This document shows positions 23,632-59,608 of a stretch of 64,000 bases of DNA, in pieces; within the stretch, counting starts at the first letter, position 1; every line of letters begins with the position of its first letter. A program made the position numbers and the translations under genes. This DNA is from an uncultured Bacteroides sp. (lineage in GTDB: Bacteria > Bacteroidota > Bacteroidia > Bacteroidales > GCA-2748055). The stretch is taken from NCBI GenBank assembly GCA_964500835.1, contig CAZCQL010000014.1, positions 3,029 through 67,028 of the forward strand, written 5' to 3'. The notes below the pieces were generated by a model that made no database searches, was not told where the DNA came from, and saw nothing but the letters and a program-made list of their open reading frames with translations.

Positions 23632-24117
23632 AGTTGGATTATTAATGTTTTTCTCAACTGTGTCAATCATTGTCAGGATATTAAGGACTCTCTCTTTAGA
23701 TTTCATTTTTTCAATCCTGATTGTGAATTGCAATTATTGGCTTAAAATATAAAAGAGCGTAGATATTGGCTAGTACAATGTAATCCTTTTGCTTATGAAA
23801 ATCAGATAAAGCAGTCCTTTTACATCTTACAATTCAGGTTTTACACTTTTTGAGCCTGATATAGCCGTCTCTATGTTGCATATTTGAGATACATTTGAAC
23901 TGTGCTCGCTAACCCCGTAGTAGAACTTCGGGGAACCGAGTTTACGAGCTCGGCAAAGCCAATGCGCGAGCGGGATTCAACAATGGATTCGTCACAACGC
24001 CCTTCTGCTTGTGTTCCAGAGCCTGTTTACTCACGGGTAAAATGACCAGAAATGAGGGACGCTAAGATTGCAGACACAATTAGAGTCCTCATTATCGGGC
24101 CTTTCAAGTCAGACCCT

Positions 24118-38727: not shown

Positions 38728-39816
38728 TCAATGAGGCACGGAAAGGGGCAGATCCAGCCAGGCCAGGCCCACATGCCGTTTCATATGACTCGTACTGTTT
38801 CCGCCGGGAGCATCATAAAATAGAGCCAGCTGTTGGCCAACCTGAACCACTGATGGCAGCCCGATGCATTTCTTTGACCAAGAACAATTTTGCCCATCCA
38901 GAACCACCGCCTTCTTCTCAGGATCCCATTGGTTCAAATCCTTGCTCCAATATACCCAGATGGCATCGGTGTATTCTGTTTCATCAATTCCAATATGATT
39001 GGTAAACAAAAACCAGGTCTCAATATTTTTCTCGTAATACAATGTGGAGTTCTCGATCTGCTCTTCGATAGGAACCATGGGTTGTGGGTCGGGAGTCCAG
39101 GGACCATCCAGATCCCTGGTCCTGGCAATGCCCAACGTGCGCTGAACGGATGGAATTCCCTGTTTTTGGGTTGTCGCACTGAAGAACTGAAGGTACTCTT
39201 CCTTGTACCTGATGACCACGCCCGGACTGGCGGTGATGGAATAGTATGTGTTCGGACGGGTTCGAAAAGGGACCACATCCTTCTGCTTGATCCACGGGCC
39301 TGCAGCACTTTTTCCCTTGGCCTTCATCGTAAGATAAGGGAAAGAAGGAACTAGGTCGGGTGGGTCCGAAACGTTGGGCGTTCCCAAGTAGAACATGTGC
39401 CACTGCTCACCATCAAAATAGGTGACCCCATAGGAAGCCGACCTGGAATCCTCTTCATCAGGTCTTCCAAAGTGGAGAATGGGCCCTCTCTTTTCCCAAT
39501 TAATCAGATCTTTACTTACAGCCTGAGAACAGAGCCATCCTCTGGGCCCCGCCGCATCGTAATGCATGTAGTATGTACCATCCGCTTCGAATACCCAGAC
39601 ATCGCGGGCACCGAGTAGGTCACAGTTGTCCGGCCCATCTCCGTACCAGAGTACAATACCATGGTCCTTTGCATCCATCCTCAAGGCGGCCGCCGGTCTT
39701 CCATCAAGGTACAGGCTTCCGGACTGTTTCCCGTTTTCTTCTGTTTGCCCGGTAACTGAAGCGGATGCAGCATAAATGATTAATGCAAAATACGCAATCC
39801 TGGTTGACATAGTCAT
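38728..39816 (-). CDS. Secreted five-bladed beta-propeller glycoside-hydrolase-like protein (GH43/GH32-clan fold)
   Basis: Signal peptide. GARDVWVFEADGTYYMHYDAAG...SKDLINWEKRGPIL...WHMFYLG...GIARTRDLDGPW is the repeated blade pattern of clan GH-F/J propellers. The family is not assignable by eye. Its ATG overlaps the upstream gene's stop (ATGA at 39813..39816). Confidence 0.7.
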   Translation of the reverse strand: MTMSTRIAYFALIIYAASASVTGQTEENGKQSGSLYLDGRPAAALRMDAKDHGIVLWYGDGPDNCDLLGARDVWVFEADGTYYMHYDAAGPRGWLCSQAVSKDLINWEKRGPILHFGRPDEEDSRSASYGVTYFDGEQWHMFYLGTPNVSDPPDLVPSFPYLTMKAKGKSAAGPWIKQKDVVPFRTRPNTYYSITASPGVVIRYKEEYLQFFSATTQKQGIPSVQRTLGIARTRDLDGPWTPDPQPMVPIEEQIENSTLYYEKNIETWFLFTNHIGIDETEYTDAIWVYWSKDLNQWDPEKKAVVLDGQNCSWSKKCIGLPSVVQVGQQLALFYDAPGGNSTSHMKRHVGLAWLDLPLSVPH

Positions 39817-42800
39817 TGCCGTTTTTGTTCTTGATTAATCGCCTCAATAGTGACCGGTCCCAATAGTCCCGATGGAGTGAGTGCCTCTCCCTTCCTGATA
39901 TCTGCTACAGTATAGGTAGTAAAGCGATCAGCCTCCGGAAGCTCCAGGTCTCCCACCATGCGGTTTCTCCACACATTTACCACCTCAACCTCTAGCTGGT
40001 TTGTTCCTGCTTTAAGTAAATCTCTTGTATTCAACCGGTAGGGTGCCATCCAGGCTACCCCCAGATCGGCTCCATTGAGTTTTACCCGGGCCATCACTCC
40101 CACCGCACCCAGGTTCAGGAATAGATCCCCTTCAGGAATCGCCTCCAGGGTAAATGTAGTCGCATAGGTGGCAGTCCCGGAATAATATTTTACCCTCCAG
40201 TCCTCCGATTCGGTCCAGCTGCTCAACCGCATGACCTTCACCGGACTGGCAGGGCCAAACTCCTTATTCTCGAAATCCACCTCCCATTCTGATTCCAGTG
40301 TTGCAATCAATTCAGGCACCGGGGAATTTTCCCCATATCCTGTGCCAACGTTCTCATTGCTGCCCGAGGTAAAGACAATAAAACAGCTTTCATTCTTCTG
40401 CATGGCCAGGGGAACAGTAGTTCTGTTGCCATCGTCCATGAAGTCATTGAGCAGACGAATATCGCCTGTGACCGCATTCCACAATTGAGGCTGAAGACCG
40501 CTTATTCTGAAAGAGGGTTCAAAATTCAGCACTTCATCGCCCTGGTTGGTCAGGAAATAGATCTCCATCCCAGGCAAGGTGCGGTGTGTCCACAGAAAGG
40601 CTGCATCTGCAGGATAGACCACATCTTGAGGAACACCCATATAATCAAGTGCTTCCTGAATTCCCATTCCAGCCAATACATGACCCTCTCCAACGTCGTT
40701 TTCCAGTTTCCCACCGGCATGAGAATCGCCCCACATGCGGTTGGCAATCTCCTTGATCTCCTGGTCGCATTGCGGATAGTTCTGGAGGCTTGGAGACTTT
40801 ATAGGTTTGCCACCCAGGAAGGTCCCGCCAGCCATCGCCAATTCTTCCATTTTAGCAAGTACATGGGGCCTCATATTTGAATTTTCGGGCAGAACCATGA
40901 TCGAATAAGACATTCCATCCGGCAGCACAAACCTGCCATTTTCAACGGATAGCCTCTCCAAAATCACCTCTGCATTGATATAGTCATAGGAATATCCTGC
41001 TGGGAGTTCCGGATCTTTGGTTCCTGTCATTTTTGGCGCATCTTCGCCAATGAAATAGAGTACATCAGCGGCATATTTTCCCTGTTGCAGCATATGCTGG
41101 CACCTCCTGGTGTAGTCCACCCAGGCTTTTCCCTGGTCAAACCAGGTATTCAGACGGTTGAATTCGGTGGAGAACCATGCATTGATACCGGGAGCCTCTT
41201 CCCTCGGCTGCTGGATATACAGATGGAACACATAGTGGTTGATCCCTTCGGTCCAGGACCAGTCTCCCCTCTTTTTCAGCAAAGCAGGATGCCTGGCATA
41301 GGATTGTCCTCCGGCTGTGAATGCTTCTGCCGAAGTAATTGGCTTCCCATAAATATGGGCTGCCGATGAGCCCGATTTACATTCAATATCTCCCAGGCTA
41401 CCCTCGTTCCAGAACTCCCCTGCTACCAGGTCGCTCTGGCCACCATACATCAGGAATTCGCCAGGGTATCCCCAGTGTCCATAATTTTCCAACCACGTTT
41501 TAAGCCCATATTCATTGGCTGCTTTACGTAATCCACCCACATATTCATAGGCTACGTCATCGGCCACCAAACGACGAAGGTCCCAGAGAAATCGATCCGA
41601 CTCTTCCACACTACCAACCACCCTACCGGAAATTGTAGGAAGGTATTTAACTGGGTCATATTCATATTTCTTCTGGAATTTTTCAGCATACCCATCGGTC
41701 CAGTTCTGTGAACCCATCTCATAGCTGTCGGCGATCAGGTATTTTAGCGCCGGGCGGCTCTCTTCCGGGATTCGCTCGATGATTTTAAGCATGTATTGCT
41801 CAAAATGGAATTTTGCCAGCTCGCTGCTGGCCTTGTCAATCTCATATCCTTTTCCCTGGGGGGCGGCCGGCGAATTTTGTGTTCCTGTAGGGGTCATACC
41901 AATGCGTAAAACGGTCCACTTACCCTCAGGCACATCCTCCATGGTCAGGGTTCCACTGGCATCCATCCGGTCGCTCACATCATGCACCTCCGACACCACC
42001 AATCGGGCATCCTTGATAGATTCCTGTGATTCCCAAAGGTAGGTCTCAAATACCGGGAAAGGAGTGGGATGCATCTTTCCAAGGGATTTCTCAATATAAT
42101 TTTCAAGTACCCGGGCTTCCGTTATCCGGATTTCAGCAAAGCCCGCTGCCGTGAGCACCTCTCCTGCTCCGGCAGCTGCATCCCAACTGGCACTTGTGGC
42201 ATTGGTGCACACCAGCCTGAATGATTTTGCATCAGTTTCAGGAATAGAAATGGCCACAGGTCCGTGAGTTACAGGGCCCACATTTACCTTGCTGTTGCTG
42301 CGATCAAATGCAAATGATTTAATGGTCTTATAGGTTCCATCCACCATGGCCTGTAGCTCCACATTGCACTTAAAATCTGGGGTTGCTGGTGTGAGCAGAA
42401 TACTTCGGGCAGCCAGTGATTCTGCAGAAGAGAGAGTTACCACATAGGGATTTTTATTGCTTCCGCTGAAGAGTGCATTCTTCTTTGAAATATAGCTGTC
42501 CTCTGAAGCAATCTTTTGAAAAGCAAGTACATAAGTATCCTGAAACTCTGCTTCGGGTTTCGGAAGATTGACAGTAACGTTTCCTCCTCCCGCAACCGTG
42601 GTTTCTGAGTAGACAAGGTGTCGCATGGCTTTGTCGGAGGTTACCCAGGGTCCGCCACTCTGGCTCCAACCGGGACAGTTAAAGAATCCAATATCGATAC
42701 CAATCCTGTGGCCCTCATTGACCACATGAACCATGGCATCCCACCATTCGTTGCTAAACAATGGCACCGGGCCATCCACCTCATCTGGATTAATGTTTCC

Positions 42801-43061
42801 GATCAGGACCGCTCCCAGTCCAAACTCCTTCATGGCCTCCAGGTCCCTGGTGATCCCCTCCTTGGAAATGTCATCACCAATCCAGTAGTAGTAACACCAT
42901 GGTTTATTGGTATCTGCCGGGATAACAAATCCCTCCTGGATATTGTCATAGACCTCCTGGGCGATCTTTTCCGGACGATCGCAATAGAAAAATGCCATGG
43001 AGAGCAGTATTAACAAAGAAAATCTGTAGATCCTAACAGGTTTCATTGAGTGTTTTTTCAT
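39813..43061 (-). CDS. GH106-like glycoside hydrolase (PF17132-type, probable alpha-L-rhamnosidase), lipoprotein
   Basis: Lipobox-like FFYC. N-terminal block KPWCYYYWIGDDISKEGITRDLEAMKEFGLGAVLIGNI. C-terminal sugar-binding-like domain YSGTATYATTFTL...VKLNGADLGVAWMAPYRLNTRDLLKAGTNQLEVEVVNVWRNRM. Confidence 0.82.
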   Translation of the reverse strand: MKKHSMKPVRIYRFSLLILLSMAFFYCDRPEKIAQEVYDNIQEGFVIPADTNKPWCYYYWIGDDISKEGITRDLEAMKEFGLGAVLIGNINPDEVDGPVPLFSNEWWDAMVHVVNEGHRIGIDIGFFNCPGWSQSGGPWVTSDKAMRHLVYSETTVAGGGNVTVNLPKPEAEFQDTYVLAFQKIASEDSYISKKNALFSGSNKNPYVVTLSSAESLAARSILLTPATPDFKCNVELQAMVDGTYKTIKSFAFDRSNSKVNVGPVTHGPVAISIPETDAKSFRLVCTNATSASWDAAAGAGEVLTAAGFAEIRITEARVLENYIEKSLGKMHPTPFPVFETYLWESQESIKDARLVVSEVHDVSDRMDASGTLTMEDVPEGKWTVLRIGMTPTGTQNSPAAPQGKGYEIDKASSELAKFHFEQYMLKIIERIPEESRPALKYLIADSYEMGSQNWTDGYAEKFQKKYEYDPVKYLPTISGRVVGSVEESDRFLWDLRRLVADDVAYEYVGGLRKAANEYGLKTWLENYGHWGYPGEFLMYGGQSDLVAGEFWNEGSLGDIECKSGSSAAHIYGKPITSAEAFTAGGQSYARHPALLKKRGDWSWTEGINHYVFHLYIQQPREEAPGINAWFSTEFNRLNTWFDQGKAWVDYTRRCQHMLQQGKYAADVLYFIGEDAPKMTGTKDPELPAGYSYDYINAEVILERLSVENGRFVLPDGMSYSIMVLPENSNMRPHVLAKMEELAMAGGTFLGGKPIKSPSLQNYPQCDQEIKEIANRMWGDSHAGGKLENDVGEGHVLAGMGIQEALDYMGVPQDVVYPADAAFLWTHRTLPGMEIYFLTNQGDEVLNFEPSFRISGLQPQLWNAVTGDIRLLNDFMDDGNRTTVPLAMQKNESCFIVFTSGSNENVGTGYGENSPVPELIATLESEWEVDFENKEFGPASPVKVMRLSSWTESEDWRVKYYSGTATYATTFTLEAIPEGDLFLNLGAVGVMARVKLNGADLGVAWMAPYRLNTRDLLKAGTNQLEVEVVNVWRNRMVGDLELPEADRFTTYTVADIRKGEALTPSGLLGPVTIEAINQEQKRQ

Positions 43062-43219: not shown

Positions 43220-46000
43220 TCAGAGATTTATTTTGAACAGGTGTTCTCCAGGATTCAACTTTTGGCTTCCTGAAGGCAATACCAATAGGGCACTTGTATT
43301 TGGAGGAACAGTCACCGAATACTCAAATGTTCCGGATGAAGTCTGTTCCCACGCTGCCCTAATCTCCCCCTGGATGGAATTGTAAGTTGCCTCCGCATGA
43401 TCCAGCCTCCTTATGAAATTGGGACGAAAGATGATCTGTTTGAAACCCGGCTCCTGCTTATCAAAATTGATCCCTGCCAGGTGTCGATAAAAAAAGTTGT
43501 CGACAGCACCCATAAAATGATGGATACGAGAATTTCTCCTGGTAAACCCTTCCCACAGAGTGGTGGCTCCTTCCCCTACCATCCACCCAAATGAGGGCCA
43601 GGTGGGCTCTGTAATCAGGTCAAAGGCCAGATCGGCATACCCGTGTTTGGGCAAATACTCATAGGCAGAATGGATCGCAAAAACTCCTCCATAAAGGTGG
43701 TTCACTTTCTCCTCAACTATGTTTTGAATAAGGCGGCCCTCCACCCGCTCGATATCGTCTTCAGGCACAATCCCATATTCCAGGGCACTCACATTTAAGA
43801 CGGGAACATACTCATCATAAGGCTCATCACCGACATACTCTGCACTCTCAGCATCGTAAATCCATTTATTAATACCGGTTTTCACCCTTTCGGCCTGTTC
43901 TTCAAGCTGTTTCTGATCCTGCTTGTACCCCAGGATACCTGCCATATGTGCCATTCGTTTCAAGACCAGGTGAAAGTTCAGAGCCGCGTTGGCCGCATTC
44001 CCCCCAGGTTTTTGACCCTCCTTATTGGGTAGAGGGGTTACCCAGTCACCCAGCACATCTGTAAAAATACCATCCATTTCGGGCCTGTTGTTATGCTCCC
44101 ATGAGAATCTCACCCAGCGCATCATATTGCTCCAGTACTGTTCAAAGAGTCGGGTGTCTCCGTAATACATATACATGTACCATGGTACATGCACTGCTGC
44201 CGATGACCAGAGTGTGGACTTGCCACGATTATAGTGATTATCAGGTGCAATGATAGCCAGACCTCCGTCGCAGTCCTGGGTGTCGAACATATCCCTGGTA
44301 AATTTCGTCATCAAAGCCGCCAGGTCATAGTTTGCCATCCCGAATTCCATGCCGGTTACTGCATCTCCCATCCATCCGTTCTTCTCCCGGTGGGGACAAT
44401 CTGTGGGGATGCTGTGAAGGTTAAATTTGAGCGATTTGACACAAATATCATGCACCGCATTGGCCACCTCATCCGAACATTCAAAGAATCCCACCCGCGG
44501 AACATCCGAATGTACTTCAATGACCTCAATATCCTCTTTGGAAAGTGTACCCTTGTAGCCAAAGATGGTAGCATAACGGAATCCCTTATAGGTAAACCTG
44601 CAAACTGCTTCTTCACCAGGTTCTCCCTTGGCCACGTATGCCATCTGCTGAAGCTGAGCAGGCTGTTTTGGATCCGTCGGATCCTCATGTTCTCCGAAAT
44701 AAACAAGGATTCTATCCCCTTTTTGTGCTTTGGGAAGTTTGATTCTTAAGCAACCAGCCAGTTGAGTTCCTGCATCAATCCAGATTCCATTTCTCCAGCC
44801 TCCCCGATTCACAACCTCTGCGGGGGGATAGGATTTTACTTTGCGAATGGGTTGACAAAGCTGCGCTGTTAATTCTCCCCCAGGTGAAGGGGCAGGTTGC
44901 ACCGGGTCCCAAGTTGATTCATCCAGACCGGTCTCCGCCCACCCGTCAATTTCTTTGGTAGCATCGTAGATTTCACCCATATGCGGTCCATCATAAACCA
45001 CCGGTCCGCCTGTTACTTTCCACGACAGATCTGATACCAAATCCTCGCTGCTGCCATCGGAATATTCTATTTTGATCCGGCAGATCAGTTTGGGCTGACC
45101 CACGTACCCGTCTTTGCGATAAAAGCCCCAGTGATCGTAGGCCCTTTGGCTGTAGAAGCCACTCCCCAACATCACTCCGAACACATTTTGCCCTTTTCTC
45201 ATTTGAGGGCCTACATCATGGGTGGCATATAGGATGGTTTTTGAGTAGTTGGTCCAACCTGGGTCCAGCACCTGGTCCCCGATACGCTGCCCATTCACAA
45301 ACAATTCATAGTAACCGATGCCACTGATAAAGGCTGTGGCTTTGGCCACCTCTTTGGGAGCATCGAACTCCTTTCTATAAAGAGGAGCAGGATCATATTT
45401 ATTCTTGTCGAAGAAATTATAGCGCTCCCACATATTCATCCGCATCCCAAAATAACTGGGCAAGCCCCACTCGAAGCACTCCTTTTCCACATCCATCTTC
45501 CTCCACCACTCCTGAGCCCACTCCTCCTGAGGCCTCCAGGAGATCCACTCGGCTCCTTTCCAATCGGCTACTGTGAAAAGCCCGGTGGTAAATTTGGCTG
45601 CTTTGCTCCACTCCTGCTCTTTCCCATTCCTGTCCCATATTTTTACTTTCCAAAAATAGGAAGTGGCTGGCTCAAGAGCCTTTCCGTTATATGCGATATG
45701 GGTATTCTGACCCGACTTCTTCTTGCCGGAATCGAGCATATCTCCCTTATCTGTCTGAAGCAGCTCTTCCGAAGTGGCCACCACAATGCGATAGGCCTTT
45801 TGGAACTGCCCTTCCACATCGGAGGAGAGTTGCCAGTAAAATCGGGGATCGGACATGTCCACACCCATGGGATTTTTCATGTATTCACATTTTAGGTTAA
45901 CAACCTCAACCTGTGCACTGAGATGCAGGTGAGCAAGTAAAACCAGAAGCAGAAGAATTATTACCCTATTCATTAAAACTCGGTTTGGTGCTGTATTCAA
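43220..46000 (-). CDS. GH78 alpha-L-rhamnosidase (copy 2)
   Basis: 926 aa with a signal peptide. N-terminus NLKCEYMKNPMGVDMSDPRFYW and catalytic signature IPTDCPHREKNGWMGD. Confidence 0.92.
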   Translation of the reverse strand: MNTAPNRVLMNRVIILLLLVLLAHLHLSAQVEVVNLKCEYMKNPMGVDMSDPRFYWQLSSDVEGQFQKAYRIVVATSEELLQTDKGDMLDSGKKKSGQNTHIAYNGKALEPATSYFWKVKIWDRNGKEQEWSKAAKFTTGLFTVADWKGAEWISWRPQEEWAQEWWRKMDVEKECFEWGLPSYFGMRMNMWERYNFFDKNKYDPAPLYRKEFDAPKEVAKATAFISGIGYYELFVNGQRIGDQVLDPGWTNYSKTILYATHDVGPQMRKGQNVFGVMLGSGFYSQRAYDHWGFYRKDGYVGQPKLICRIKIEYSDGSSEDLVSDLSWKVTGGPVVYDGPHMGEIYDATKEIDGWAETGLDESTWDPVQPAPSPGGELTAQLCQPIRKVKSYPPAEVVNRGGWRNGIWIDAGTQLAGCLRIKLPKAQKGDRILVYFGEHEDPTDPKQPAQLQQMAYVAKGEPGEEAVCRFTYKGFRYATIFGYKGTLSKEDIEVIEVHSDVPRVGFFECSDEVANAVHDICVKSLKFNLHSIPTDCPHREKNGWMGDAVTGMEFGMANYDLAALMTKFTRDMFDTQDCDGGLAIIAPDNHYNRGKSTLWSSAAVHVPWYMYMYYGDTRLFEQYWSNMMRWVRFSWEHNNRPEMDGIFTDVLGDWVTPLPNKEGQKPGGNAANAALNFHLVLKRMAHMAGILGYKQDQKQLEEQAERVKTGINKWIYDAESAEYVGDEPYDEYVPVLNVSALEYGIVPEDDIERVEGRLIQNIVEEKVNHLYGGVFAIHSAYEYLPKHGYADLAFDLITEPTWPSFGWMVGEGATTLWEGFTRRNSRIHHFMGAVDNFFYRHLAGINFDKQEPGFKQIIFRPNFIRRLDHAEATYNSIQGEIRAAWEQTSSGTFEYSVTVPPNTSALLVLPSGSQKLNPGEHLFKINL

Positions 46001-46339
46001 ATATAGTTTATCGCACCAAGCGTTTCAATGACCAGAATGGGCTTTCATTTGTATTATTTGATCCGTTTGAAGGGCTACAATGAGAAGTCCAGAAACTGGT
46101 GGTACGCGGTCCGGGCAAATTATAAAAAAAGAAGTGGATGTAATGAAGCTGAAAATCGTGAAAATGATTTTTTGTTTCAATGTCTCCGGAGTATTAAATG
46201 TGCATTGACAAATAATTTCTGCCAGGGGAAGGCACACCAACTTCTGAAAAGTTTTTCGATAGAATTTCCGTTATATAATAATAGGGCCCTTGTTGGGACA
46301 ATAAAAGAAAAGTCAGTAACTTTTCGCAGCTGCAGAACA

Positions 46340-46474
46340 CAACTAGCCATTGGAAGGATGGGGAAACCGGAAGAAATAGGTTCATTGGCACTCTACCTTT
46401 GCTCAGATGAAGCATCATTTATTACGGGAAGCTGCATTTCCATTAATGGCGGATTTATTACCTTGAACACTTAA
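46340..46474 (+). pseudogene. 3'-terminal remnant of a short-chain dehydrogenase/reductase (SDR) gene
   Basis: LAIGRMGKPEEIGSLALYLCSDEASFITGSCISINGG is the canonical SDR C-terminus (p.gR.g.peEia..v.fLaSdeAsfitGq...vdGG). The preceding ~100 codons of ORF 46028..46474 have no SDR features: no TGxxxGxG and no YxxxK. Confidence 0.55.
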
Positions 46475-46640: not shown

Positions 46641-47915
46641 ATGAATGCAACAACAAAAAAATCCTTTCTGAGGAGAATATGGTATATGATGCTCGCTGTG
46701 GGTCCGGGTTTCTTCGCAATTGGCTATACCATTGGGACGGGCAGTGTAACCTCCATGGCAAAAGCAGGCAGTGAATTCGGCACCCAGCTGATGTGGGTGC
46801 TCGCACTGAGTGTGTTTTTCTCATGGGTGATGATGGAAGCATACGGCCGTTATGCAGTGGTAACAGGAGGGACAGCCATGCACGGCATCAGGGGTAAGAT
46901 CAAATTCGGCAATACCTTGGCCATCGCTATTATCATAGGCTGTGTTATGGCCCAATGGACCTGCCTGTCGGGGATCATTGGCCTCACATCCAACGCTATA
47001 TATGAATTGATCCACATCTTTTTTCCCAGCACATCCTCAACCAGCTACTGGGCCGTGCTGGGTATAGCGATTGTCATGACGCTTATTTTATACGGAATAC
47101 TGCTGCTGGGGGATTATTCATTGTTCGAAAAGATCCTTGTGATATTTGTAACCGTAATGGGTATATCATTTATTGTTTCCATGTTTATCGTTCTCCCGGA
47201 ACCCGGAGAAATATTGAGGGGATTTATACCCTCCATACCCAGTGTACCAGGGGGGAAGCTACTGGTCGCAGCCTTTGTTGGAACCACCATGGCAGCCCCT
47301 GTGTTTGTTACAAGACCCCTGTTTATTAAAGGAAAAGGATGGGGAAAAGAAAACACCAGGGAACAGAGCAGAGATGCCATTGTTTCAGCCATCCTGATGT
47401 TTGTTGTCAGCGGTTCAATTATAATAGCTGCCACCGGCGCCCTGTATCACGAAGGGAAAGTGATCAACAAAGTACTGGACATGGTGTATACCCTCGAACC
47501 TGTGGCCGGAAAATTCGCGGTTGCTCTATTCATGGTAGGCACCCTTAGTGCAGGTATATCCTCCATCTTTCCTATACTTATGGTAGCCCCGCTTTTAATA
47601 GCCGATTATCGCAAAGGTGTGCTCGATACCAAATCCGGTCAATTCAAGGTTGTCACTGCTATTGCCGCCCTGATAGGACTTACAGTCCCCATCCTGGGAT
47701 CTAATCCCATTGTGGCTCAAATCACTACTCAGGTATCCGGTGTTTTCGTTCTCCCGCTGGCGGTTGCAGGCATAGCCCTGCTGGTTAACCGAAAGGAAAT
47801 GGGCATTCACCGTGCAGGCATCGGCTTGAATGCAGGCATGCTGGCTGCCTTTCTGTTTTCCTGCTTCATGTTTTATACGGGAATTTCTGCTTTAATAGAT
47901 TTGTTTGGAAAATAA
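46641..47915 (+). CDS. Nramp-fold (PF01566-like) membrane transporter lacking the DPGN metal-binding motif
   Basis: 424 aa and polytopic. TM1 GPGFFAIGYTIGTGSVTSMAKAGSEFGTQLMWVLALS aligns with Nramp GPG...S.AY.DPGN....Q.GA.fGy.LLWVLL., but DPGN is replaced by IGTG. Confidence 0.85.
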   Translation: MNATTKKSFLRRIWYMMLAVGPGFFAIGYTIGTGSVTSMAKAGSEFGTQLMWVLALSVFFSWVMMEAYGRYAVVTGGTAMHGIRGKIKFGNTLAIAIIIGCVMAQWTCLSGIIGLTSNAIYELIHIFFPSTSSTSYWAVLGIAIVMTLILYGILLLGDYSLFEKILVIFVTVMGISFIVSMFIVLPEPGEILRGFIPSIPSVPGGKLLVAAFVGTTMAAPVFVTRPLFIKGKGWGKENTREQSRDAIVSAILMFVVSGSIIIAATGALYHEGKVINKVLDMVYTLEPVAGKFAVALFMVGTLSAGISSIFPILMVAPLLIADYRKGVLDTKSGQFKVVTAIAALIGLTVPILGSNPIVAQITTQVSGVFVLPLAVAGIALLVNRKEMGIHRAGIGLNAGMLAAFLFSCFMFYTGISALIDLFGK

Positions 47916-47921: not shown

Positions 47922-48695
47922 ATGAAGATGATTCAAGAATTTAAAAAGAAACTAAGTGATGGCGAAACGGTATTCGGGCCATTCATGAAAACCTCGGATG
48001 CTGCCTTCGTGGAGATCACAGGTCATGCCGGATTTGATTTTGTGATCCTGGATATGGAACATGCCCCTTTCACCTATGCCAATCTTCAGAACCTGGTCAT
48101 GGCCGCTGAGCTATCCGGAACCCTGCCTGTAGTCAGGGCCCAGAATTCGAACGATATATTTATTTCCAAAGCCCTTGATATTGGGGCATTGGCAGTTCAG
48201 GTTCCCCATATTACAAATGCCGCCGAAGCGGAATCATCTATTTCTGCGGCGAAATTCCATCCTTCGGGTCAGAGAGGAATGGACCCGTTCGTAAGGGCAG
48301 CTTCCTATTCATCGATCCCGCGTGATACATATTTTTCACAGGCCAACGAAACCTTGGTTATCCTGCAACTGGAGGGCAAGGAGGCCATTGACAATCTGGA
48401 TGAGATCATGGATGTAGCCGGAGTTGATATCCTTTTTATCGGGCCCTACGATCTTTCCCAATCCATGGGTGTACCCGGACAGGTTTCTCATCCCAGCGTC
48501 ATCGGGCACATGGAAACTATTGTAACCCGCGCAAAAGAACGAGGAATTGTGGTCGGCACTTTTAGCGATACCCTTGAATCGGCCAGGATGTGGCAAGATG
48601 CCGGGATCCAATATATTTCCTATGGAGTGGATGTCTTTCTATTTAAAAATGCCTGCAACAGCCTGCTGAAGCAACTGCACACTCCCCATAAGTAG
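47922..48695 (+). CDS. HpcH/HpaI-family 2-keto-3-deoxy-sugar-acid aldolase (2-keto-3-deoxy-L-rhamnonate aldolase-like), cytoplasmic
   Basis: FKKKLSDGETVFGPFMKTSDAAFVEITGHAGFDFVILDMEHAP...VVR...ALDIGA..VQVPH...AEAE..I.A.KF.P.G.RG...LQLEGKEAIDNLDEIMDV.GVD.LFIGPYDLS parallels E. coli RhmA/HpcH block for block. No signal peptide. Confidence 0.88.
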   Translation: MKMIQEFKKKLSDGETVFGPFMKTSDAAFVEITGHAGFDFVILDMEHAPFTYANLQNLVMAAELSGTLPVVRAQNSNDIFISKALDIGALAVQVPHITNAAEAESSISAAKFHPSGQRGMDPFVRAASYSSIPRDTYFSQANETLVILQLEGKEAIDNLDEIMDVAGVDILFIGPYDLSQSMGVPGQVSHPSVIGHMETIVTRAKERGIVVGTFSDTLESARMWQDAGIQYISYGVDVFLFKNACNSLLKQLHTPHK

Positions 48696-48841
48696 AATTC
48701 TAAGGAAGATCTGACAGATCCGGGCAAGATTTTTGAATTGTTGAATCGATGATTCTTCGCTGCTTGCCGCGGGGAACGTCAATATGCCTCGTTCCTTAAG
48801 GACACCTTTTTCCGTTGGCAGCCAATTTTTCTTTCATCGGT

Positions 48842-50137
48842 CTATACCTCTAATTCAAAGCCGAATCCCGGACGATCGGGGGGAACCATGTAGATGCCTT
48901 CCGGGCCTTTTGTAATTCCATTTTCCTTGGCATACATTTCATAGACTTCATTGGGACCACCGGGAGCCGGCATGAACATTTCGCACCAGGGACTATTTGG
49001 AGTGGCCATAATAAAATGGGGAGCCCCATCTCTCCATCCGCCATGGGGAATTACCGGGATACCATGAGCTGCAGCCATGGCTCCAATTCTGCGTAATTCG
49101 CTGAGTCCCCCACACCATTCCATATCAGGTTGCCAGATTTTGGCACCCTCATAGTCAAGCAACAACTGGAAACCATAGCGGGTATATTCGTGTTCCCCGG
49201 TTACGATCCTTGTGGAGGTGATTCCTTTATTCAGGCGGCCATATCCGGCGTATTCATCAGGGGGCAGACACTCTTCCATCCAATATACCCGGTAGGGTTC
49301 AAGCATCCTGGCAAATTCAAAGGTATAGTCTTCTGTAAATGCCATCCAGCAATCCAGCATGATCTCCCCATCAGGGCCCAACAAGTTTCTGGCCCTTTCT
49401 ACCAGTTCGATATTTTTTCTCATCCCTTCTCTGCCATCAGCAGGACCATAAGGTATGGCAAGTTTTAATTTTGTAAAACCAAATTCGACATGTTGCTCCA
49501 AATCATTCCCTGTACAATAGGCAGGGATCCGCTCTTTGGTTTTGCCTCCCAGCAATTGGTATACCGGCGTTCCCAGAGCCTTTCCGATCAGATCCCAGAG
49601 TGCATTGTCCACGGCACTGATAGCATGAACGGCGATCCCCTTTCTTCCATAAGACAGGGTTGACCTCCACATGATGTCCCAAAGCCGCTCCACGTTAAAG
49701 GGATCTTCCCCGATCAGTAATTTGGTCAGGTGATTTTCGATCACAAAACCTGCACCTGGTCCCCCAAAGCCAATACCCGAGACTCCCTTGTCAGTCATAA
49801 TTTGTACAGTGGAAAGACCCTGATTACCGGCCATAAATAAGGCCCTGTATGCTTTATATTCCGGGTAAATTGACATGGGATTAGCCACTTCCACCCTGCC
49901 TGTAGACCAGGAACCTTCAGCCGGCTTGTACTCAGGCCAGGGTTTTTTCCTTTTGGGACTGACCATCTTTACCTCAGTGATTTTCAGTTTACTTTTCACC
50001 TCTCTGAAGGGCAAAGGTGGAAGGCTGATCTCAGCCGTAGCAGGCGATACGTGTGTTTCTGCATGGATCTGGCCAAATGGCATTAAGATGGCGGGAGCTG
50101 TGAGTGCCCCGGCCTTAATAAAATGACGTCGTTTCAT
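48842..50137 (-). CDS. rhmD: Enolase-superfamily L-rhamnonate dehydratase homolog with N-terminal Tat signal
   Basis: Blocks shared with E. coli RhmD/YfaW as I recall it: ISAVDNALWDLIGKALGTPVYQLLGG, MLDCWM, WMEECLPPDEYAGY, TGEHEYT, QPDMEWCGGL, DRPGFGFEL. These are preceded by MKRRHFIKAGALTAPAILMPFGQIHA. Confidence 0.9.
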   Translation of the reverse strand: MKRRHFIKAGALTAPAILMPFGQIHAETHVSPATAEISLPPLPFREVKSKLKITEVKMVSPKRKKPWPEYKPAEGSWSTGRVEVANPMSIYPEYKAYRALFMAGNQGLSTVQIMTDKGVSGIGFGGPGAGFVIENHLTKLLIGEDPFNVERLWDIMWRSTLSYGRKGIAVHAISAVDNALWDLIGKALGTPVYQLLGGKTKERIPAYCTGNDLEQHVEFGFTKLKLAIPYGPADGREGMRKNIELVERARNLLGPDGEIMLDCWMAFTEDYTFEFARMLEPYRVYWMEECLPPDEYAGYGRLNKGITSTRIVTGEHEYTRYGFQLLLDYEGAKIWQPDMEWCGGLSELRRIGAMAAAHGIPVIPHGGWRDGAPHFIMATPNSPWCEMFMPAPGGPNEVYEMYAKENGITKGPEGIYMVPPDRPGFGFELEV

Positions 50138-50155
50138 AAGAGCTTTTTAATTAGT

Positions 50156-50332: not shown

Positions 50333-50455
50333 TTCAAACGTTTATTCATGGTTAAAGCTAATGATTATTTAACTCAAGTTCTGTCCACAGCAGTTATTGC
50401 AACTGACAATGATACCAATACAATGGTCAACAGGATAGTTCTGCTGATTCTCATG

Positions 50456-52612
50456 CTACTTAGCTGATAGTGCCCAGTTCACTGTACCTATGGTGATGAG
50501 CTGTACCTGCCCCTTATCATCCACCAGGTAATGAATAGGTACAATACCCTCTCCTATCTGGGCATAACTGTCCATCATCACTTCACCATCCTCTACAGGG
50601 ACATCAATCCTGCCCTTATAGCTCAGTGTTTGATTTGGGCGTAGTGCAGAATCATCAAGCATATCAAACACCAGGGGAGCTTCTTTAATGCTTCCGGAGG
50701 CCAGAAGCGGCAAAAGCGCCCAACGATGAATAAGGGGATGAGAAGTGGTCATCTGCCGGGACCAAGACTTTGCTTCGACATTCATCGTTGTCCCGTCCCA
50801 TTGGCCAACTTCAATGAACGTTACATGATCCCTGTCCTCTACCTGAGACTCCAGTGTCCATTGAGTTGTGGTGTTATTCTCTCCTGTTAACTGCATGGTT
50901 GTCTTGACTATACTGCCGGGGGCTGCAACTGTTCCTCTGCCATTGCGCATTTCAATGGTCTGGCATTGCCTATCATTAAAGGTTACATCCATAGAACCCA
51001 TGGGGGTGTTTTTTGACTTTTCAGCAGCACCCATCCATGCAACAAGTAAGTAATGTGCTGTAAAATCACCGTTCATGTTTTCTCCTGACAAAGGAGTGAA
51101 GGTCGATAGATAGCCGGTAACCGGCTCAATGGCACAGGGTTCTACATACGAATTCACCAGGGAACGATCAATCTTCTTTCTGTATCTGGCTTTGGCATTC
51201 CGGTTAACAGGTGTTGGCACAGAGGTCTTTTTTGATGATTTACCCTCCATGGCCTTCTTAAAGTCAGCGTAATATTTCAAATAAACTTCATGTTCCTTGT
51301 CCTTCTCCTCGGGCTCATAAATCTCAATCTTGTGTAAGTATTCGAAAAGAAACTCCTCATGCCTCGCCATCACTGCCGTGCCGTCAGGCCCGGACGAAAG
51401 ATTATTCATCTCCAAGGGGTCATTTTTCAGGTTATAGACCTTTGTTGGCTTGCCATCGCAATAGAAAATCGTCTTGTATTGTTTGTCGCGCACTGCCACC
51501 TGTCCTCCCCCAAGGAAGGATTCACCCACAATATATTGGCGCCAATCATTAACTTTCTTTCCTTCTGCAATCGGACGCAAACTCTTGCCAACTGTCATAT
51601 TCGGCAGCATAGGGACCTGGGCATAGTCGCAAATCGTTGCTGCCAGATCAACACCAATTGTAAGGTGCGCATCATCCTGTATACCTTTCAAGGCCTTGCC
51701 CGGATCCACAATGATTGTCGGCACCCGCCATGCTTCTTCTTCCATATATCCTTTGCTAACCTTACCGTGAAAACCCAGTCCGTCTCCGTGGTCAGCAGTA
51801 AAAATTACAACAGTGTTTTCGGCAAAGCGTGAGTTCATCAAAGCATCGTAAAGGCTGGCTATCTCAGCATCCACCATCTCAACCCAACGATAATAGGTGT
51901 ATATGTAATAGCGCCAGTCAAGTTCTGTCCAGTCACCGGTAAATCCCCATGGTTTATCCGCCTTTACCCAGTTCTCGGGCAGCGGGGGCAACCGGTCTTC
52001 AATCTCTTTGGCAAAACGTATCTTGCCCTGACCTCCTGCAGCACCGCATGAGTAACAACAATCATGTGGGTTGAGGAATCCTGCATTTAAAAAGAACGGT
52101 TCATCGCCGATGTAGTTTTCAAGGAAACCCATACATGCACGTGCCACATTTCCATCAATATATTCCCCTTTGCCTATTGGCTTACCGTAAAGCAAATCAA
52201 AGCTCTTGGTCACATCCCTGCCATTCACATGCCACTTGCCGGAGTAAGCAGATGTATAGTTGCCGTGCTTCGTGAGCCACTGGCCGAGGTCAGGGATGTC
52301 CTCACGCAGTTTGTTGCTGTTGGTTGGCATACCTGTTTCACACGATGTAAGTCCGGTGTACCAGCATGCCCGGGCCGGACAGCACTGCGGCATGGAGGCG
52401 TAGCTGGCACGAAATGAATAGCCATCACCGGCTAATTTATCCATTGCAGGGGTTTTAACATATGGGTTGCCATAGGCAGACATAGCCTCCCAGTGCATCT
52501 GGTCAACATGGATAAAAAGAATATTGGGGCGTTCTTTAGGAGAAGTCATGCCAAGGCATGAAACACAAATTTGGACCAATAAAAGCGTTACCGTCGATTT
52601 AAAAGTTTTCAT
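50456..52612 (-). CDS. S1-family sulfatase with ~260-aa C-terminal domain of unknown function
   Basis: Start taken at MKTFKSTVTLLLVQICVSC (ATG at 52612). NILFIHVDQ and active-site C-C-P-A-R-A-C-W-Y-T-G. After ~aa 470 comes a non-sulfatase extension. Confidence 0.9.
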   Translation of the reverse strand: MKTFKSTVTLLLVQICVSCLGMTSPKERPNILFIHVDQMHWEAMSAYGNPYVKTPAMDKLAGDGYSFRASYASMPQCCPARACWYTGLTSCETGMPTNSNKLREDIPDLGQWLTKHGNYTSAYSGKWHVNGRDVTKSFDLLYGKPIGKGEYIDGNVARACMGFLENYIGDEPFFLNAGFLNPHDCCYSCGAAGGQGKIRFAKEIEDRLPPLPENWVKADKPWGFTGDWTELDWRYYIYTYYRWVEMVDAEIASLYDALMNSRFAENTVVIFTADHGDGLGFHGKVSKGYMEEEAWRVPTIIVDPGKALKGIQDDAHLTIGVDLAATICDYAQVPMLPNMTVGKSLRPIAEGKKVNDWRQYIVGESFLGGGQVAVRDKQYKTIFYCDGKPTKVYNLKNDPLEMNNLSSGPDGTAVMARHEEFLFEYLHKIEIYEPEEKDKEHEVYLKYYADFKKAMEGKSSKKTSVPTPVNRNAKARYRKKIDRSLVNSYVEPCAIEPVTGYLSTFTPLSGENMNGDFTAHYLLVAWMGAAEKSKNTPMGSMDVTFNDRQCQTIEMRNGRGTVAAPGSIVKTTMQLTGENNTTTQWTLESQVEDRDHVTFIEVGQWDGTTMNVEAKSWSRQMTTSHPLIHRWALLPLLASGSIKEAPLVFDMLDDSALRPNQTLSYKGRIDVPVEDGEVMMDSYAQIGEGIVPIHYLVDDKGQVQLITIGTVNWALSAK

Positions 52613-52662
52613 TTTTTTTTGAAATATAGTTATTGCCATTGGTAATTTGATGTCCTGCTGCT

Positions 52663-56914: not shown

Positions 56915-59608
56915 ATGAAAACGACTCACTTGCTACTTTGGTTAGCCCTGATTACTATATTGTCTGCCTGTAATCAAATCACTACCAATCAATTGGTTGA
57001 TCTTAAGACCGAAAACAGAACGGCTCCCCTTGGGATTGACAGGAAACAACCCCGTTTTAGCTGGATCATTAAATCAATGGAAAATGGGATGATTCAATCG
57101 GCCTACCAGGTCCTTGTGGCCACCGCCCCTTCCTTGCTCAGGGATGATACTTCCGACCTGTGGGATTCGAAGAAAATAATCTCCGGACAGTCAAATCTGG
57201 TATCCTATGAGGGTGCTTCACTTACCTCGGGCAGTGAAGTATTCTGGAAAGTCAGAATCTGGGATGCACAAGATCGTCGCACCCCCTGGAGCGATGTGGC
57301 TTCCTTTAGCGTGGGCCTGCTTGAGAAGGAAGACTGGAAAGCAAGCTGGATTGGGATTGACAGGCAGGTAGGCATTGACCGGCCTGATATTGAAAACCGG
57401 GTGCTCTCGGCGCGTTACCTAAGGAAAGAATTCCTTGTGGAAAAACCTGTCAAACGGGCCATGGCTTATATCGTGGGGATGGGCACCTATGAACTCTACC
57501 TCAATGGCATAAAAGTGGGCGATCATGTGCTCTCTCCTGCACTTTCCGAATACCCGGTACGTTCCTACTATGTAAGCTATGATGTGACGGATCAGATCCA
57601 TGAAGGCCTGAATGCCGTGGGCACCATCCTGGGAAATGGCCGTTACTTCGCTCCGAGGATCAAGGCCCCCACACCCACCCTTACCTATGGCTTCCCCAAA
57701 CTGTTGTTGCAAATCGAACTGGAGTTCAGTGATGGCAGCCAAGGCAGGGTCCTGAGCGACGCTTCATGGAGCATCACTACAGAAGGGCCGATACGTGGAA
57801 ACAATGAGTATGATGGAGCAACCTTTGATGCACGAATGGAATTTCCGGGCTGGAATGAATCTGGATTTGACGCTTCAGGATGGCAAGAGGTCGAAATTGT
57901 GGAACCATCCTCACCGGTGATCTCCTCCCAGTTTATCGAACCCATGAAGGTGACTGAAACCATTCGGCCCGTTGCCCTCACCAATCCTGAACCCGGTGTC
58001 TATATCTTCGATATGGGACAAAATATGGTGGGCTGGACAAAGTTGAAGACAGAAGCAGAATCAGGGACCGAAATCAGGCATCGCTTTGCTGAAACATTGC
58101 AAGAAGATGGCACACTATACCTGGCCAATATACGCGGGGCAAAAGTGACCGATATCTATATCGCCAACGGGGAAGGGATCGAACTGTACGAACCTCGATT
58201 TGTATTTCATGGATTCAGGTATGTGGAGCTTACCGGTTATCCGGGTAAGCCCGATCTCTCCACCCTGGAAGGTAAAGTGGTGCATGACGACCTGGCCACG
58301 ACCGGCCATTTTGAATGCTCCGATTCCCTCATCAACCAGGTGTATAAAAATGCCATCTGGGGACTCAGGGGAAACTACCGGAGTATTCCGACTGATTGTC
58401 CACAGCGGGATGAACGACAGGGTTGGCTGGGAGATCGTGCAGGCGGTTCCAGGGGTGAATCCTATGTTTTTGATATCAGGAACCTCTATAGAAAGTGGCT
58501 GGTGGATATTTTTGATGCGCAGAAGGAGAACGGCAGTATTTCCGATGTAAGCCCTGCCTACTGGCCTTTTTACAACGACAATGTCACCTGGGCCGGAACT
58601 CCCATTCAACTGGTGAAGATGTTGTACGACCAGTACGGAGAGAGGGATGTAATTGATGAAAGCTATGGCCCCATGAAAAAATGGGTGGATTATATGGTTG
58701 AAAACTACATGGAACGGGACCTGATGCCCAGGGATAATTACGGAGACTGGTGTGTTCCTCCCATCAATCCGGAGGTGATCCATACCAGGGATCCTGCACG
58801 CCTGACTTCAGGTGATTACCTGGGCACCTCTTATTTCTTCCACAACCTCTCACTGATGAAGGGATATGCAGAGATGCTTGGGAAAAATGAGGATGCGGCA
58901 TATTTCAACGATCTTGCATCCCGTATGAAAGCGGCTTTCCACAGGGAATTTTTTGATCCTGTAACCCGTAGATACAGTAACAACACCGCCACGGTCAACA
59001 TCCTGGCCCTGGCTTTTGGCATGGTACCATCTGAATATGAGAAAATCATTTTCGACAACCTGGTGCAGAAGATCGAGGTGGAACATCACTCCCATATTAC
59101 CACGGGCCTCATTGGACAACAATACTTCAACCGGATCCTGACTAAATACGGAAGGGCAGATTTGGCCCTTACCGTCAATACACAAACAGACTACCCTGGC
59201 TATGGTTACATGATCGAGAACGGTGCAACCACCATCTGGGAGCTTTGGAACGGAAATACAGCAGATCCCGCCATGAATTCGGGGAACCATGTGATGCTCC
59301 TGGGCGATTTCCTGACCTGGTTGTATGAGGACCTGGCAGGAATTAAACCCGATCCCTTAAATCCCGGCTTTAAACATATTGTGATGAAACCGGTCCTGAT
59401 ACCAAGATTGGACCATGTGAAAGCCAGTCACCTCTCACCCTTTGGATTAATTGAAAGTAAATGGGAAAAATCTGGAGATCTGTTTAACTGGCATGTAACG
59501 GTTCCTGCCAACAGCACGGCTACCATACATGTACCCGGGATGGATGAACCTGTGCAGGTTGGTTCAGGTGCACATCATTTTACAAGCCAATTAAACGAAC
59601 AGAGATAA
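56915..59608 (+). CDS. GH78 alpha-L-rhamnosidase (copy 3), lipoprotein
   Basis: Lipobox ILSAC. LKTENRTAPLGIDRKQPRFSW and catalytic signature IPTDCPQRDERQGWLGD. Confidence 0.92.
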   Translation: MKTTHLLLWLALITILSACNQITTNQLVDLKTENRTAPLGIDRKQPRFSWIIKSMENGMIQSAYQVLVATAPSLLRDDTSDLWDSKKIISGQSNLVSYEGASLTSGSEVFWKVRIWDAQDRRTPWSDVASFSVGLLEKEDWKASWIGIDRQVGIDRPDIENRVLSARYLRKEFLVEKPVKRAMAYIVGMGTYELYLNGIKVGDHVLSPALSEYPVRSYYVSYDVTDQIHEGLNAVGTILGNGRYFAPRIKAPTPTLTYGFPKLLLQIELEFSDGSQGRVLSDASWSITTEGPIRGNNEYDGATFDARMEFPGWNESGFDASGWQEVEIVEPSSPVISSQFIEPMKVTETIRPVALTNPEPGVYIFDMGQNMVGWTKLKTEAESGTEIRHRFAETLQEDGTLYLANIRGAKVTDIYIANGEGIELYEPRFVFHGFRYVELTGYPGKPDLSTLEGKVVHDDLATTGHFECSDSLINQVYKNAIWGLRGNYRSIPTDCPQRDERQGWLGDRAGGSRGESYVFDIRNLYRKWLVDIFDAQKENGSISDVSPAYWPFYNDNVTWAGTPIQLVKMLYDQYGERDVIDESYGPMKKWVDYMVENYMERDLMPRDNYGDWCVPPINPEVIHTRDPARLTSGDYLGTSYFFHNLSLMKGYAEMLGKNEDAAYFNDLASRMKAAFHREFFDPVTRRYSNNTATVNILALAFGMVPSEYEKIIFDNLVQKIEVEHHSHITTGLIGQQYFNRILTKYGRADLALTVNTQTDYPGYGYMIENGATTIWELWNGNTADPAMNSGNHVMLLGDFLTWLYEDLAGIKPDPLNPGFKHIVMKPVLIPRLDHVKASHLSPFGLIESKWEKSGDLFNWHVTVPANSTATIHVPGMDEPVQVGSGAHHFTSQLNEQR

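Follow-up and report, generated by a model that had tools for sequence, protein, structure and literature searches.

The dehydratase gene and its predicted leader

A 64,000-nucleotide stretch of contig CAZCQL010000014.1 from an uncultured Bacteroides sp., referred to below as the window, carries on its minus strand a gene for a homologue of L-rhamnonate dehydratase (RhmD), an acid-sugar dehydratase of the enolase superfamily, whose product begins with a sequence resembling a twin-arginine translocation (Tat) signal. The gene is a single open reading frame (ORF), and its parts are the following.

48842..50137, minus strand: RhmD-like enolase-superfamily dehydratase gene with twin-arginine leader; single ORF, 431 aa plus stop
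50060..50137, minus strand: predicted Tat signal peptide MKRRHFIKAGALTAPAILMPFGQIHA, codons 1-26, with an RR-x-F-I-K n-region, a 16-aa uncharged h-region, and I-H-A before the predicted cleavage
49988..50059, minus strand: spacer with clade-conserved PPLPF, codons 27-50, preceding the start column of leaderless relatives
48845..49987, minus strand: catalytic domains, codons 51-431

The ORF begins at an ATG that is the first after a stop codon, and it therefore has no in-frame upstream extension; after MKRRHFIKAGALTAPAILMPFGQIHA the protein continues with ETHV. Both Pfam domains of the superfamily, MR_MLE_N (E 5.7e-18) and MR_MLE_C (E 2.2e-43), were recognized, and the top NCBIfam model was the RhmD equivalog NF011968 with 299.2 bits, the runner-up scoring 148.5 bits. 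A phmmer search of the PDB gave 2oz3 (E 2.7e-81) and 3fxg/2p0i (E 1.8e-80) as the nearest solved sequences, followed by 2p3z/2i5q. A Foldseek search yielded 621 matches at E<=0.001, in which ranks 1-16 were occupied by the RhmD structures 2oz3, 2p0i, 3fxg, 2p3z, 2gsh, and 2i5q, and among the matches listed 50 of 50 belonged to the enolase superfamily. Structure 2oz3 is from Azotobacter vinelandii, 3fxg and 2p0i are from Gibberella zeae, and the others are from Salmonella and E. coli; identity to these solved RhmDs in the fold alignment was only about 30-36%. An AlphaFold2 model built from 70 sequences had a mean predicted local distance difference test score (pLDDT) of 91.8, with values below 50 for residues 1-30 and a confident fold from about residue 41.

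When the protein was aligned with Salmonella RhmD through the PDB alignment, D262, E288, and E315 fell on D226, E252, and E280, which bind Mg2+ in that enzyme and lie where barrel strands 3, 4, and 5 end, and the dyad D338/H365 fell on D302/H329, the sole acid/base catalyst of RhmD, with H329 at the end of strand 7 and D302 at the end of strand 6. All five residues are invariant in 121 of 121 members of the clade to which the protein belongs, and we therefore regard it as an enzyme and not a degenerate binding protein. By sequence, the product is a member of the RhmD family and a predicted Mg2+-dependent acid-sugar dehydratase with intact catalytic residues. A preliminary description of this DNA had called it an RhmD homologue on account of the blocks MLDCWM, WMEECLPPDEYAGY, QPDMEWCGGL, and DRPGFGFEL; all of these are present in the 431-aa product, and the assignment stands, with catalytic machinery, domains, models, and structures all of the RhmD type.

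Other parts of the catalytic region are peculiar to the clade. The capping region contains an insert, residues 60-78, of the basic and proline-rich pattern P-[KR]-P-[KR]-[KR]-P-x-P-x-Y-x-P-x-P-G-S-W-S, and in the loop that follows the catalytic His the clade has HGGW(R)(G/D)G and RhmD has HGSS-VYS, with a Trp inserted and the Tyr replaced by Gly. About 40 more positions are fixed in the clade and differ in the outgroups.

The N-terminus had been read in the preliminary description as a Tat leader, and the sequence does show a leader of the twin-arginine type. K-R-R-H-F-I-K at residues 2-8 fits the Tat consensus S/T-R-R-x-F-L-K, and the h-region, AGALTAPAILMPFGQI, consists of 16 uncharged residues; the c-region, I-H-A followed by E, has only partial A-x-A likeness and varies among homologues. 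In a sample of 121 sequences, the query plus the best 120 relatives from the database, a twin arginine (RR) lies within the first 30 residues of 115 clade members, so that essentially all orthologues carry the leader. These 115 have F at +2 in 112 cases, L or I at +3 in 104, and K or R at +4 in 72, and the uncharged run after the motif has a median length of 17 aa and a mean hydropathy of 1.07. The few entries that lack RR look like cut-off gene calls or single substitutions, and one homologue bears the NCBI name Tat-signal protein. Among close relatives, the leader codons show 8-9 synonymous and 10-11 non-synonymous changes per 26 codons, with frame and motif kept. Tat targeting of the dehydratase clade is strongly indicated by these features.

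The same description had placed a linker of about 30 aa between the leader and the region shared with leaderless enzymes. A spacer does precede the start of the leaderless outgroups, whose first residue aligns with L51 and is M in 35 of 45, and its length is 24 aa, residues 27-50, not about 30. A microcompartment-targeting peptide was also considered for the N-terminus and was ruled out, the segment consisting of RR-x-F-L-K and an uncharged stretch and not of an amphipathic helix.

We also examined the extent of the clade. A word-indexed protein search gave 4305 relatives with E<=1e-20; the best 120 are 68-93% identical to the query and 411-444 aa long. When representatives clustered at 50% identity were searched exhaustively, the whole clade was represented by a single full-length protein, P0083 (711 bits), and the full-length protein ranked after it, with 352 bits and 50% identity, starts at the catalytic domain and has no leader; the closest full-length relatives outside the clade are in general about 50% identical and mostly leaderless. 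A scan of species-representative genomes gave 481 confirmed clade loci, belonging to at least seven phyla, of which the best 80 were used for the work on genome context; metagenomic proteins of the clade number in the thousands. Of these 80, 45 are from Acidobacteriota, and most clade members occur in soil and freshwater Acidobacteriota. By genome loci, the leader was found in 10/10 Bacteroidota, 45/45 Acidobacteriota, and 4/4 Acidimicrobiia, and also in Verrucomicrobiota, Planctomycetota, and one alphaproteobacterial and one deltaproteobacterial metagenome-assembled genome (MAG); a regular expression for it matched at least 74 of the 80 loci, most misses being start-call artefacts. Judged by their sequences, the dehydratases with a predicted Tat leader are a discrete, tight, and widespread clade. 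The database names of its members are all automatic: L-rhamnonate dehydratase, enolase C-terminal domain-like protein, and once Tat-signal protein. In the full-text literature searched, which excludes most subscription journals, we found no description of exported or periplasmic enolase-superfamily dehydratases.

Two of the loci, L081 and L082 (contigs KVRMV2_100016113 and KVRMV2_101189898; JGI 3300002231), come from the same metagenome and encode an identical dehydratase. One contig has its GH78, apiosidase-like, and sulfatase genes broken into fragments, through either strain-level decay or assembly and frameshift errors.

The surrounding locus and its counterparts in other genomes

The window is a utilization locus for a sulfated, rhamnose-rich glycan. 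The genes most relevant to the dehydratase are listed here.

11972..14752, minus strand: GH78 (Pfam)
15029..16021, minus strand: Amidohydro_2 protein (Pfam) with a Sec-type signal peptide, candidate exported aldonolactonase
20776..23733, minus strand: GH106 (Pfam)
30742..31722, minus strand: aldo/keto reductase (AKR; Pfam Aldo_ket_red) with the twin-arginine leader MQNPNRRTFIK, candidate exported aldose 1-dehydrogenase
39813..43061, minus strand: GH106 (Pfam)
43220..46000, minus strand: GH78 alpha-L-rhamnosidase (Pfam)
46028..46474, plus strand: remnant of a short-chain dehydrogenase/reductase (SDR) gene, 148-aa ORF (adh_short_C2), only the last ~40 aa SDR-like
46641..47915, plus strand: Nramp-fold membrane transporter (Pfam Nramp), directly upstream of the aldolase gene, candidate importer of keto-deoxy acids
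47922..48695, plus strand: HpcH/HpaI-family aldolase (Pfam HpcH_HpaI), candidate 2-keto-3-deoxy-L-rhamnonate (KDR) aldolase
50456..52639, minus strand: sulfatase, 727 aa, Sec or lipoprotein leader (Pfam Sulfatase and SGSH_C)
56915..59608, plus strand: GH78 (Pfam)

At least six sulfatase genes are present in the window, together with an apiosidase-like hydrolase and proteins with type IX secretion system (T9SS) tails. The sulfatase gene at 50456..52639 is upstream of the dehydratase gene and co-directional with it, at a distance of 318 bp; a scan of 48600-50600 for promoters and terminators found no more sites than in shuffled controls. The aldolase and transporter genes form an operon that converges on the dehydratase gene. 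The best PDB match of the aldolase is E. coli YfaU (2vws, E 1.2e-43), and its N-terminus has no signal peptide. The transporter reads GYTIGTGS in transmembrane segment 1 (TM1) and TMAAP in TM6, and so is without the metal-binding motifs of MntH, GYIDPGN (TM1) and MPH (TM6); its cargo may be a keto-deoxy sugar acid and not a metal. It has cultured relatives in Mariniphaga and Maribellus.

Candidates for all steps of the non-phosphorylative L-rhamnose (LRA) pathway, the AKR, the Amidohydro_2 protein, the RhmD-like dehydratase, and the HpcH aldolase, are found in the window, spread over 35 kb. The preliminary description had mentioned a Tat-bearing AKR and an amidohydrolase_2 with a signal peptide, and both were confirmed. 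The RR leader of the AKR passes TIGR01409 (17.5 bits versus a cutoff of 16.7), its D/Y/K/H tetrad motifs are visible, and its PDB relatives include L-galactose dehydrogenases. The amidohydrolase_2 has a leader of the Sec type; its top NCBIfam model is L-fucono-1,5-lactonase, with 73.8 bits, far below the cutoff, and its best PDB match is 4dlf/4dnm/4do7.

To compare gene neighbourhoods, ORFs were called in the 80 related loci, compared with the window proteins, and the neighbours were clustered de novo. The commonest neighbour was a sulfatase, located within 300 bp of the dehydratase gene in 10/80 loci and within 3 kb in 16/80, and these sulfatase-linked loci span Bacteroidota, Verrucomicrobiota, Planctomycetota, Acidobacteriota, and one deltaproteobacterial MAG. 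AKR homologues lie within 300 bp in 9/80 loci; in the AKR neighbour cluster, 10/10 proteins have an RR leader, and all start with M-[RK]-R-R-T-F. Amidohydrolase_2 neighbours carry an RR leader in 7/8 cases. In the acidobacterial loci L028, L050, and L051 the genes for AKR, amidohydrolase_2, and dehydratase stand side by side, the trio of L051 being co-directional behind an RpiR-type regulator. In six Vicinamibacterales-type loci, the dehydratase gene has as its neighbour a gene for a pyrroloquinoline quinone (PQQ) dehydrogenase, a kind of enzyme that works in the periplasm. A GH78 gene occurs no further than 10 kb away in 10/80 loci, and GH78 is the sole glycosidase family found recurrently near the gene. 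The full-text literature searched, with the same exclusion of most subscription journals, held no description of Tat-bearing AKRs in sugar oxidation.

The closest syntenic genome is a Bacteroidales MAG (L002), with 84% identity; this value and the Mariniphaga and Maribellus relatives of the transporter put the organism of the window in the Bacteroidales/Marinilabiliales area. Next to its Tat dehydratase gene, it has genes for an SDR, an FAH-family hydrolase, an Nramp-like transporter, and HpcH, in this order. The hydrolase scores 377.6 bits against the model for 2,4-didehydro-3-deoxy-L-rhamnonate hydrolase (LRA6), and the SDR, intact at 260 aa, has the same C-terminus as the remnant in the window and occupies, together with the LRA6-like hydrolase, the position of that remnant. 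Of the two routes, the organism of the window seems to have retained the one through the aldolase and to have lost the one through LRA5/LRA6. The SDR, the hydrolase, and the aldolase of L002 are all leaderless.

The pair of transporter and HpcH aldolase is conserved in L002, L084, and L085 (transporter coordinates 12045-13382, 8001-9272, and 8001-9257, respectively). In Mariniphaga sediminis, the pair lies beside RhaT, rhaM, a LacI regulator, and BNR_2 proteins. A 431-aa gene beside the Mariniphaga pair looked like an orthologue of the dehydratase gene by length and position and proved to be unrelated.

RR leaders are also found elsewhere in the superfamily. A second lineage, ManD/RspA-like, with a 448-aa protein starting MHRRGLLGG, has RR in 116/120 of its best members, and in four Acidobacteriota loci (L013 5175-6704, L014 6777-8414, L019 6155-7501, and L022 6562-8091) such a paralogue has a Tat-amidohydrolase_2 as its neighbour, with the Tat-RhmD homologue at most ~4 kb away. 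Two more distinct enolase-superfamily representatives with RR leaders, P0135 and P0250, were found in the exhaustive search. Since several lineages of the superfamily carry such leaders, export of acid-sugar dehydratases looks like a recurring trait and not a one-off.

Some further features of these loci were recorded. A DUF1501 protein with a Tat-like start and a ~1100-aa protein, taken from its sequence as a probable planctomycete-type cytochrome/DUF1553 protein, precede the dehydratase gene in seven loci (L026, L027, L048, L062, L074, and others). Within the window, a PF12831 FAD-dependent oxidoreductase at 37055-38464 (minus strand) has a twin-arginine-like start, MEKIERRTMLKSMG (TAT_signal 13.6 bits), and is another candidate exported redox enzyme. 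Five large proteins of 451-991 aa have no Pfam family, at 17657-20632 (minus), 26056-28923 (minus), 59836-61926 (plus), 62555-63910 (plus), and 15-2135 (minus); the three of them that were compared with the PDB had no sequence relatives there, and Saprospiraceae/Bacteroidia MAGs (L003, L007) again have homologues of the proteins of 991, 955, and 696 aa in the vicinity of the dehydratase gene. These proteins are candidate new glycan-active enzymes. A 232-aa ORF at 55267-55965 (minus) encodes only the N-terminal half of a sulfatase domain and overlaps by 14 bp the start of the apiosidase-like gene at 53049-55280 (minus), and is therefore probably a truncated or decaying sulfatase gene. A TonB-dependent receptor with a CarboxypepD_reg domain (6830-9979, plus) is followed by a 595-aa T9SS-tailed protein (10087-11874, plus), and no recognizable SusD-family partner stands beside it. 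A leaderless PhyH-family dioxygenase is encoded at 35018-35833 (minus); another occurs in the Planctomycetota locus L083 (18758-19540), ~7 kb from the Tat-RhmD homologue, where Amidohydro_2, sulfatase, DHDPS-family, and DUF1501 proteins are encoded around the dehydratase gene.

A possible periplasmic route and its alternatives

We consider it moderately probable, on the evidence of leader, active site, and gene context, that the dehydratase is exported by the Tat pathway and dehydrates L-rhamnonate in the periplasm, and that its product is taken up and then split in the cytoplasm. In such a scheme, the enzyme would fold in the cytoplasm and be exported to the periplasm as a folded protein. GH78 and GH106 rhamnosidases, together with sulfatases, would free L-rhamnose in the periplasm, and an exported dehydrogenase, the Tat-AKR here or PQQ or FAD enzymes elsewhere, would convert it to the lactone, which the exported amidohydrolase_2 would open to L-rhamnonate. 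His365/Asp338 would then abstract the C2 proton, with Mg2+ bound by D262, E288, and E315 stabilizing the enediolate, and loss of the C3 hydroxyl would give KDR. The adjacent Nramp-fold transporter could import KDR, and the leaderless YfaU-like aldolase could split this keto-deoxy acid into pyruvate and L-lactaldehyde; relatives have an LRA5/LRA6-type branch as well.

The distribution of leaders is consistent with this scheme, in that the candidates for steps 1-3 carry predicted export signals and the enzymes acting on keto-deoxy acids are leaderless and have a transporter gene among theirs. The preliminary description had suggested that the LRA1-3 steps may run in the periplasm. That suggestion is strengthened by the RR leaders of the AKR (10/10) and amidohydrolase_2 (7/8) neighbours, the trios of L028, L050, and L051, and the leaderless later enzymes; its part concerning substrate and export, like the transporter cargo and the recycling of the AKR cofactor, is what we infer.

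Several observations weigh against the periplasmic route. The only family matched by the first 35 aa of the dehydratase, Pfam TAT_signal PF10518, scores 17.1 bits (E 0.0053) with a cutoff of 22.7, and TIGR01409 (cutoff 16.7 bits) found no match in the N-terminal 40 aa; both curated models are very short and misses are common, and with the cutoffs missed the case for a Tat signal therefore rests on clade-wide conservation of the motif. Characterized RhmDs crystallize as large oligomers, with 8-10 chains per PDB entry, and oligomerization before transport may be awkward for Tat export. An exported AKR would have no obvious NAD(P) pool. The pairing of HpcH and Nramp-like genes with the dehydratase gene is limited, among the 80 loci, to the window and L002, and the Mariniphaga transporter-aldolase pair has no dehydratase gene within 8 kb. 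All of the best 80 loci are MAGs, except for one single-cell genome. Finally, the dehydratase falls under the cutoff of the RhmD equivalog NF011968 (299.2 versus 393 bits), and its N-terminal cap and post-His loop differ from those of characterized RhmDs.

Given the rebuilt cap and loop and the score below the RhmD cutoff, the enzyme, still exported, might act on a different sugar acid (L-fuconate, L-mannonate, L-lyxonate, L-galactonate, or D-gulonate, for example), and rhamnonate would be an inherited annotation. The identity of only ~30-36% to solved RhmDs and the many clade-specific substitutions would fit this possibility, as would the lactonase, whose best model is L-fucono-1,5-lactonase, the likeness of the AKR to L-galactose dehydrogenases, and the lack of a nearby rhamnosidase in most acidobacterial loci. 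However, the three GH78 and two GH106 enzymes encoded in the window should set rhamnose free, the adjacent aldolase most resembles YfaU, which cleaves KDR, an LRA6-like hydrolase is encoded in L002, and no glycosidase family other than GH78 recurs near the gene, so that we think a different sugar acid unlikely.

A second alternative concerns the leaving group. The substrate could be 3-O-sulfo-L-rhamnonate, as the preliminary description proposed, from which sulfate would be expelled by beta-elimination in a desulfation independent of sulfatases. Such chemistry is plausible, as the leaving group is at C3 and sulfate is a better one than hydroxide, and the context invites the idea: the dehydratase gene of the window lies just downstream of a sulfatase gene, and the linkage to sulfatase genes described above (10/80 loci within 300 bp, 16/80 within 3 kb) extends over several phyla. 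The basic insert of the clade, with K/R at positions 62, 64, and 65, and the remodelled post-His loop, with Arg369 in 91/121 members, could be read in the same sense. Against this, a sulfatase is found within 10 kb in only 5/45 Acidobacteriota loci, and the loci of this phylum pair instead with Tat-AKR and GH78. When the 17 sequences linked to a sulfatase were set against the other 62, no column of the alignment told them apart, and at 172 of 381 mature positions identity was at least 90% in each group, which suggests one common substrate in sulfated and non-sulfated settings. Elimination of sulfate would, moreover, be redundant with the adjacent sulfatases and has no precedent in the full-text literature searched, again with most subscription journals excluded. 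We consider sulfate elimination quite improbable.

It is also conceivable that oxidized oligosaccharide ends are the substrate. AKR and lactonase would then produce the reducing-end rhamnonate of a 1,3-linked rhamnan, and the dehydratase would eliminate the 3-O-glycosyl group, so that the chain would be peeled with no glycosidase involved. The three enzymes share their predicted location with the processing of imported oligosaccharides, the clade has a rebuilt cap, the region that in this superfamily closes over the substrate, and a homologue of 3-keto-disaccharide hydrolases adjoins the trio of L028. This proposal is purely inferential, though, and the loci are rich in exo-rhamnosidases that already free rhamnose, the downstream enzymes suit KDR derived from a monosaccharide, and the active sites of enolase-superfamily enzymes are generally known to enclose small ligands; taken together, these points make chain peeling very unlikely. 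Hardly any probability attaches to a cytoplasmic enzyme, with a non-functional RR stretch or translation from a downstream Met, for which the missed cutoffs of the curated Tat hidden Markov models and internal Met codons at residues 19 and 58 might speak, since RR-x-F-[LI]-[KR] and the uncharged run are kept in frame in 115/121 members from seven phyla while other leader positions drift, a start at M58 would delete the first conserved strand (residues 53-59), and truncated gene calls seem to account for the few database entries without a leader.

In its broadest form, the periplasmic route would comprise a three-enzyme module of AKR, lactonase, and dehydratase exported by Tat or Sec in Bacteroidota, Acidobacteriota, Planctomycetota, Verrucomicrobiota, and Acidimicrobiia, in which the dehydratase would also remove sulfate or glycosyl groups from C3 of oxidized rhamnose units, so that carbanion chemistry, in place of sulfatases or glycosidases, would desulfate or depolymerize glycans. 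We give this broader version little credence.

Enolase-superfamily acid-sugar dehydratases are treated as cytoplasmic enzymes, and pathway reconstructions put oxidative deoxy-sugar routes inside the cell. Our analysis suggests a known enzyme family, with known chemistry, in an unexpected compartment and as part of an apparently exported module. If this is true, many bacteria would oxidize and dehydrate rhamnose-type sugars outside the cytoplasm. Should the export be real, rhamnose and related sugars from algal, plant, and microbial glycans would be converted to keto-deoxy acids before uptake, with a change in the relevant transporters and in public-goods dynamics; the turnover of an exported NAD(P)-dependent AKR would become a biochemical question, and the Nramp fold would gain a candidate new cargo. 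The clade also offers a defined set of proteins for asking whether beta-elimination removes sulfate from sulfated rhamnans.

Comparison with known systems

The RhmDs of E. coli and Salmonella (YfaW; 2i5q, 2p3z, 3box, 3cxo, 3d46) share with the dehydratase of the window the two-domain fold, the Mg2+ ligands, and the Asp-His dyad. The window enzyme is ~30% identical to them in the fold alignment and adds a 26-aa leader and a 24-aa spacer, it has the basic, proline-rich insert in its cap and HGGWRxG in place of the HGSS-VYS of RhmD, and it is predicted to be periplasmic, whereas RhmD is cytoplasmic. As in rhmRDTA (yfaXWVU), the gene is linked to those for a YfaU-type aldolase and a transporter; the transporter of rhmRDTA is RhmT of the major facilitator superfamily, and its counterpart in the window has the Nramp fold.

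The closest solved relatives of the window dehydratase are LRA3 proteins, from Azotobacter vinelandii (2oz3) and fungi (3fxg/2p0i). The logic of the LRA pathway is a dehydrogenase, a lactonase, and a dehydratase, followed by an aldolase or the LRA5/6 branch; the known LRA1-4 enzymes work in the cytoplasm, LRA1 being an SDR. In the window, by contrast, the dehydrogenase candidate is an AKR predicted to be exported, and the candidates for the first three steps bear signals and those for the later ones do not. The oxidative L-fucose pathway of Xanthomonas and Burkholderia uses the same trio of families, an AKR or SDR, the amidohydrolase_2 L-fucono-1,5-lactonase, and FucD of the enolase superfamily. 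The lactonase of that pathway is the best model and PDB match of the lactonase homologue in the window, with a score far below the equivalog cutoff. The L-fucose pathway is cytoplasmic, and FucD comes from another branch of the superfamily.

Periplasmic conversion of an aldose to a lactone and then to an aldonate is known from the glucose-fructose oxidoreductase (GFOR) and periplasmic gluconolactonase of Zymomonas mobilis and from glucose oxidation in Pseudomonas. GFOR is a Tat-exported sugar oxidoreductase with tightly bound NADP, and NADP bound in a similar manner could be a possible answer to the cofactor problem of the AKR. The protein families differ from those described here. In Zymomonas and Pseudomonas the aldonate enters the cytoplasm and undergoes dehydration there, whereas in the system of the window the dehydratase itself appears to be exported.

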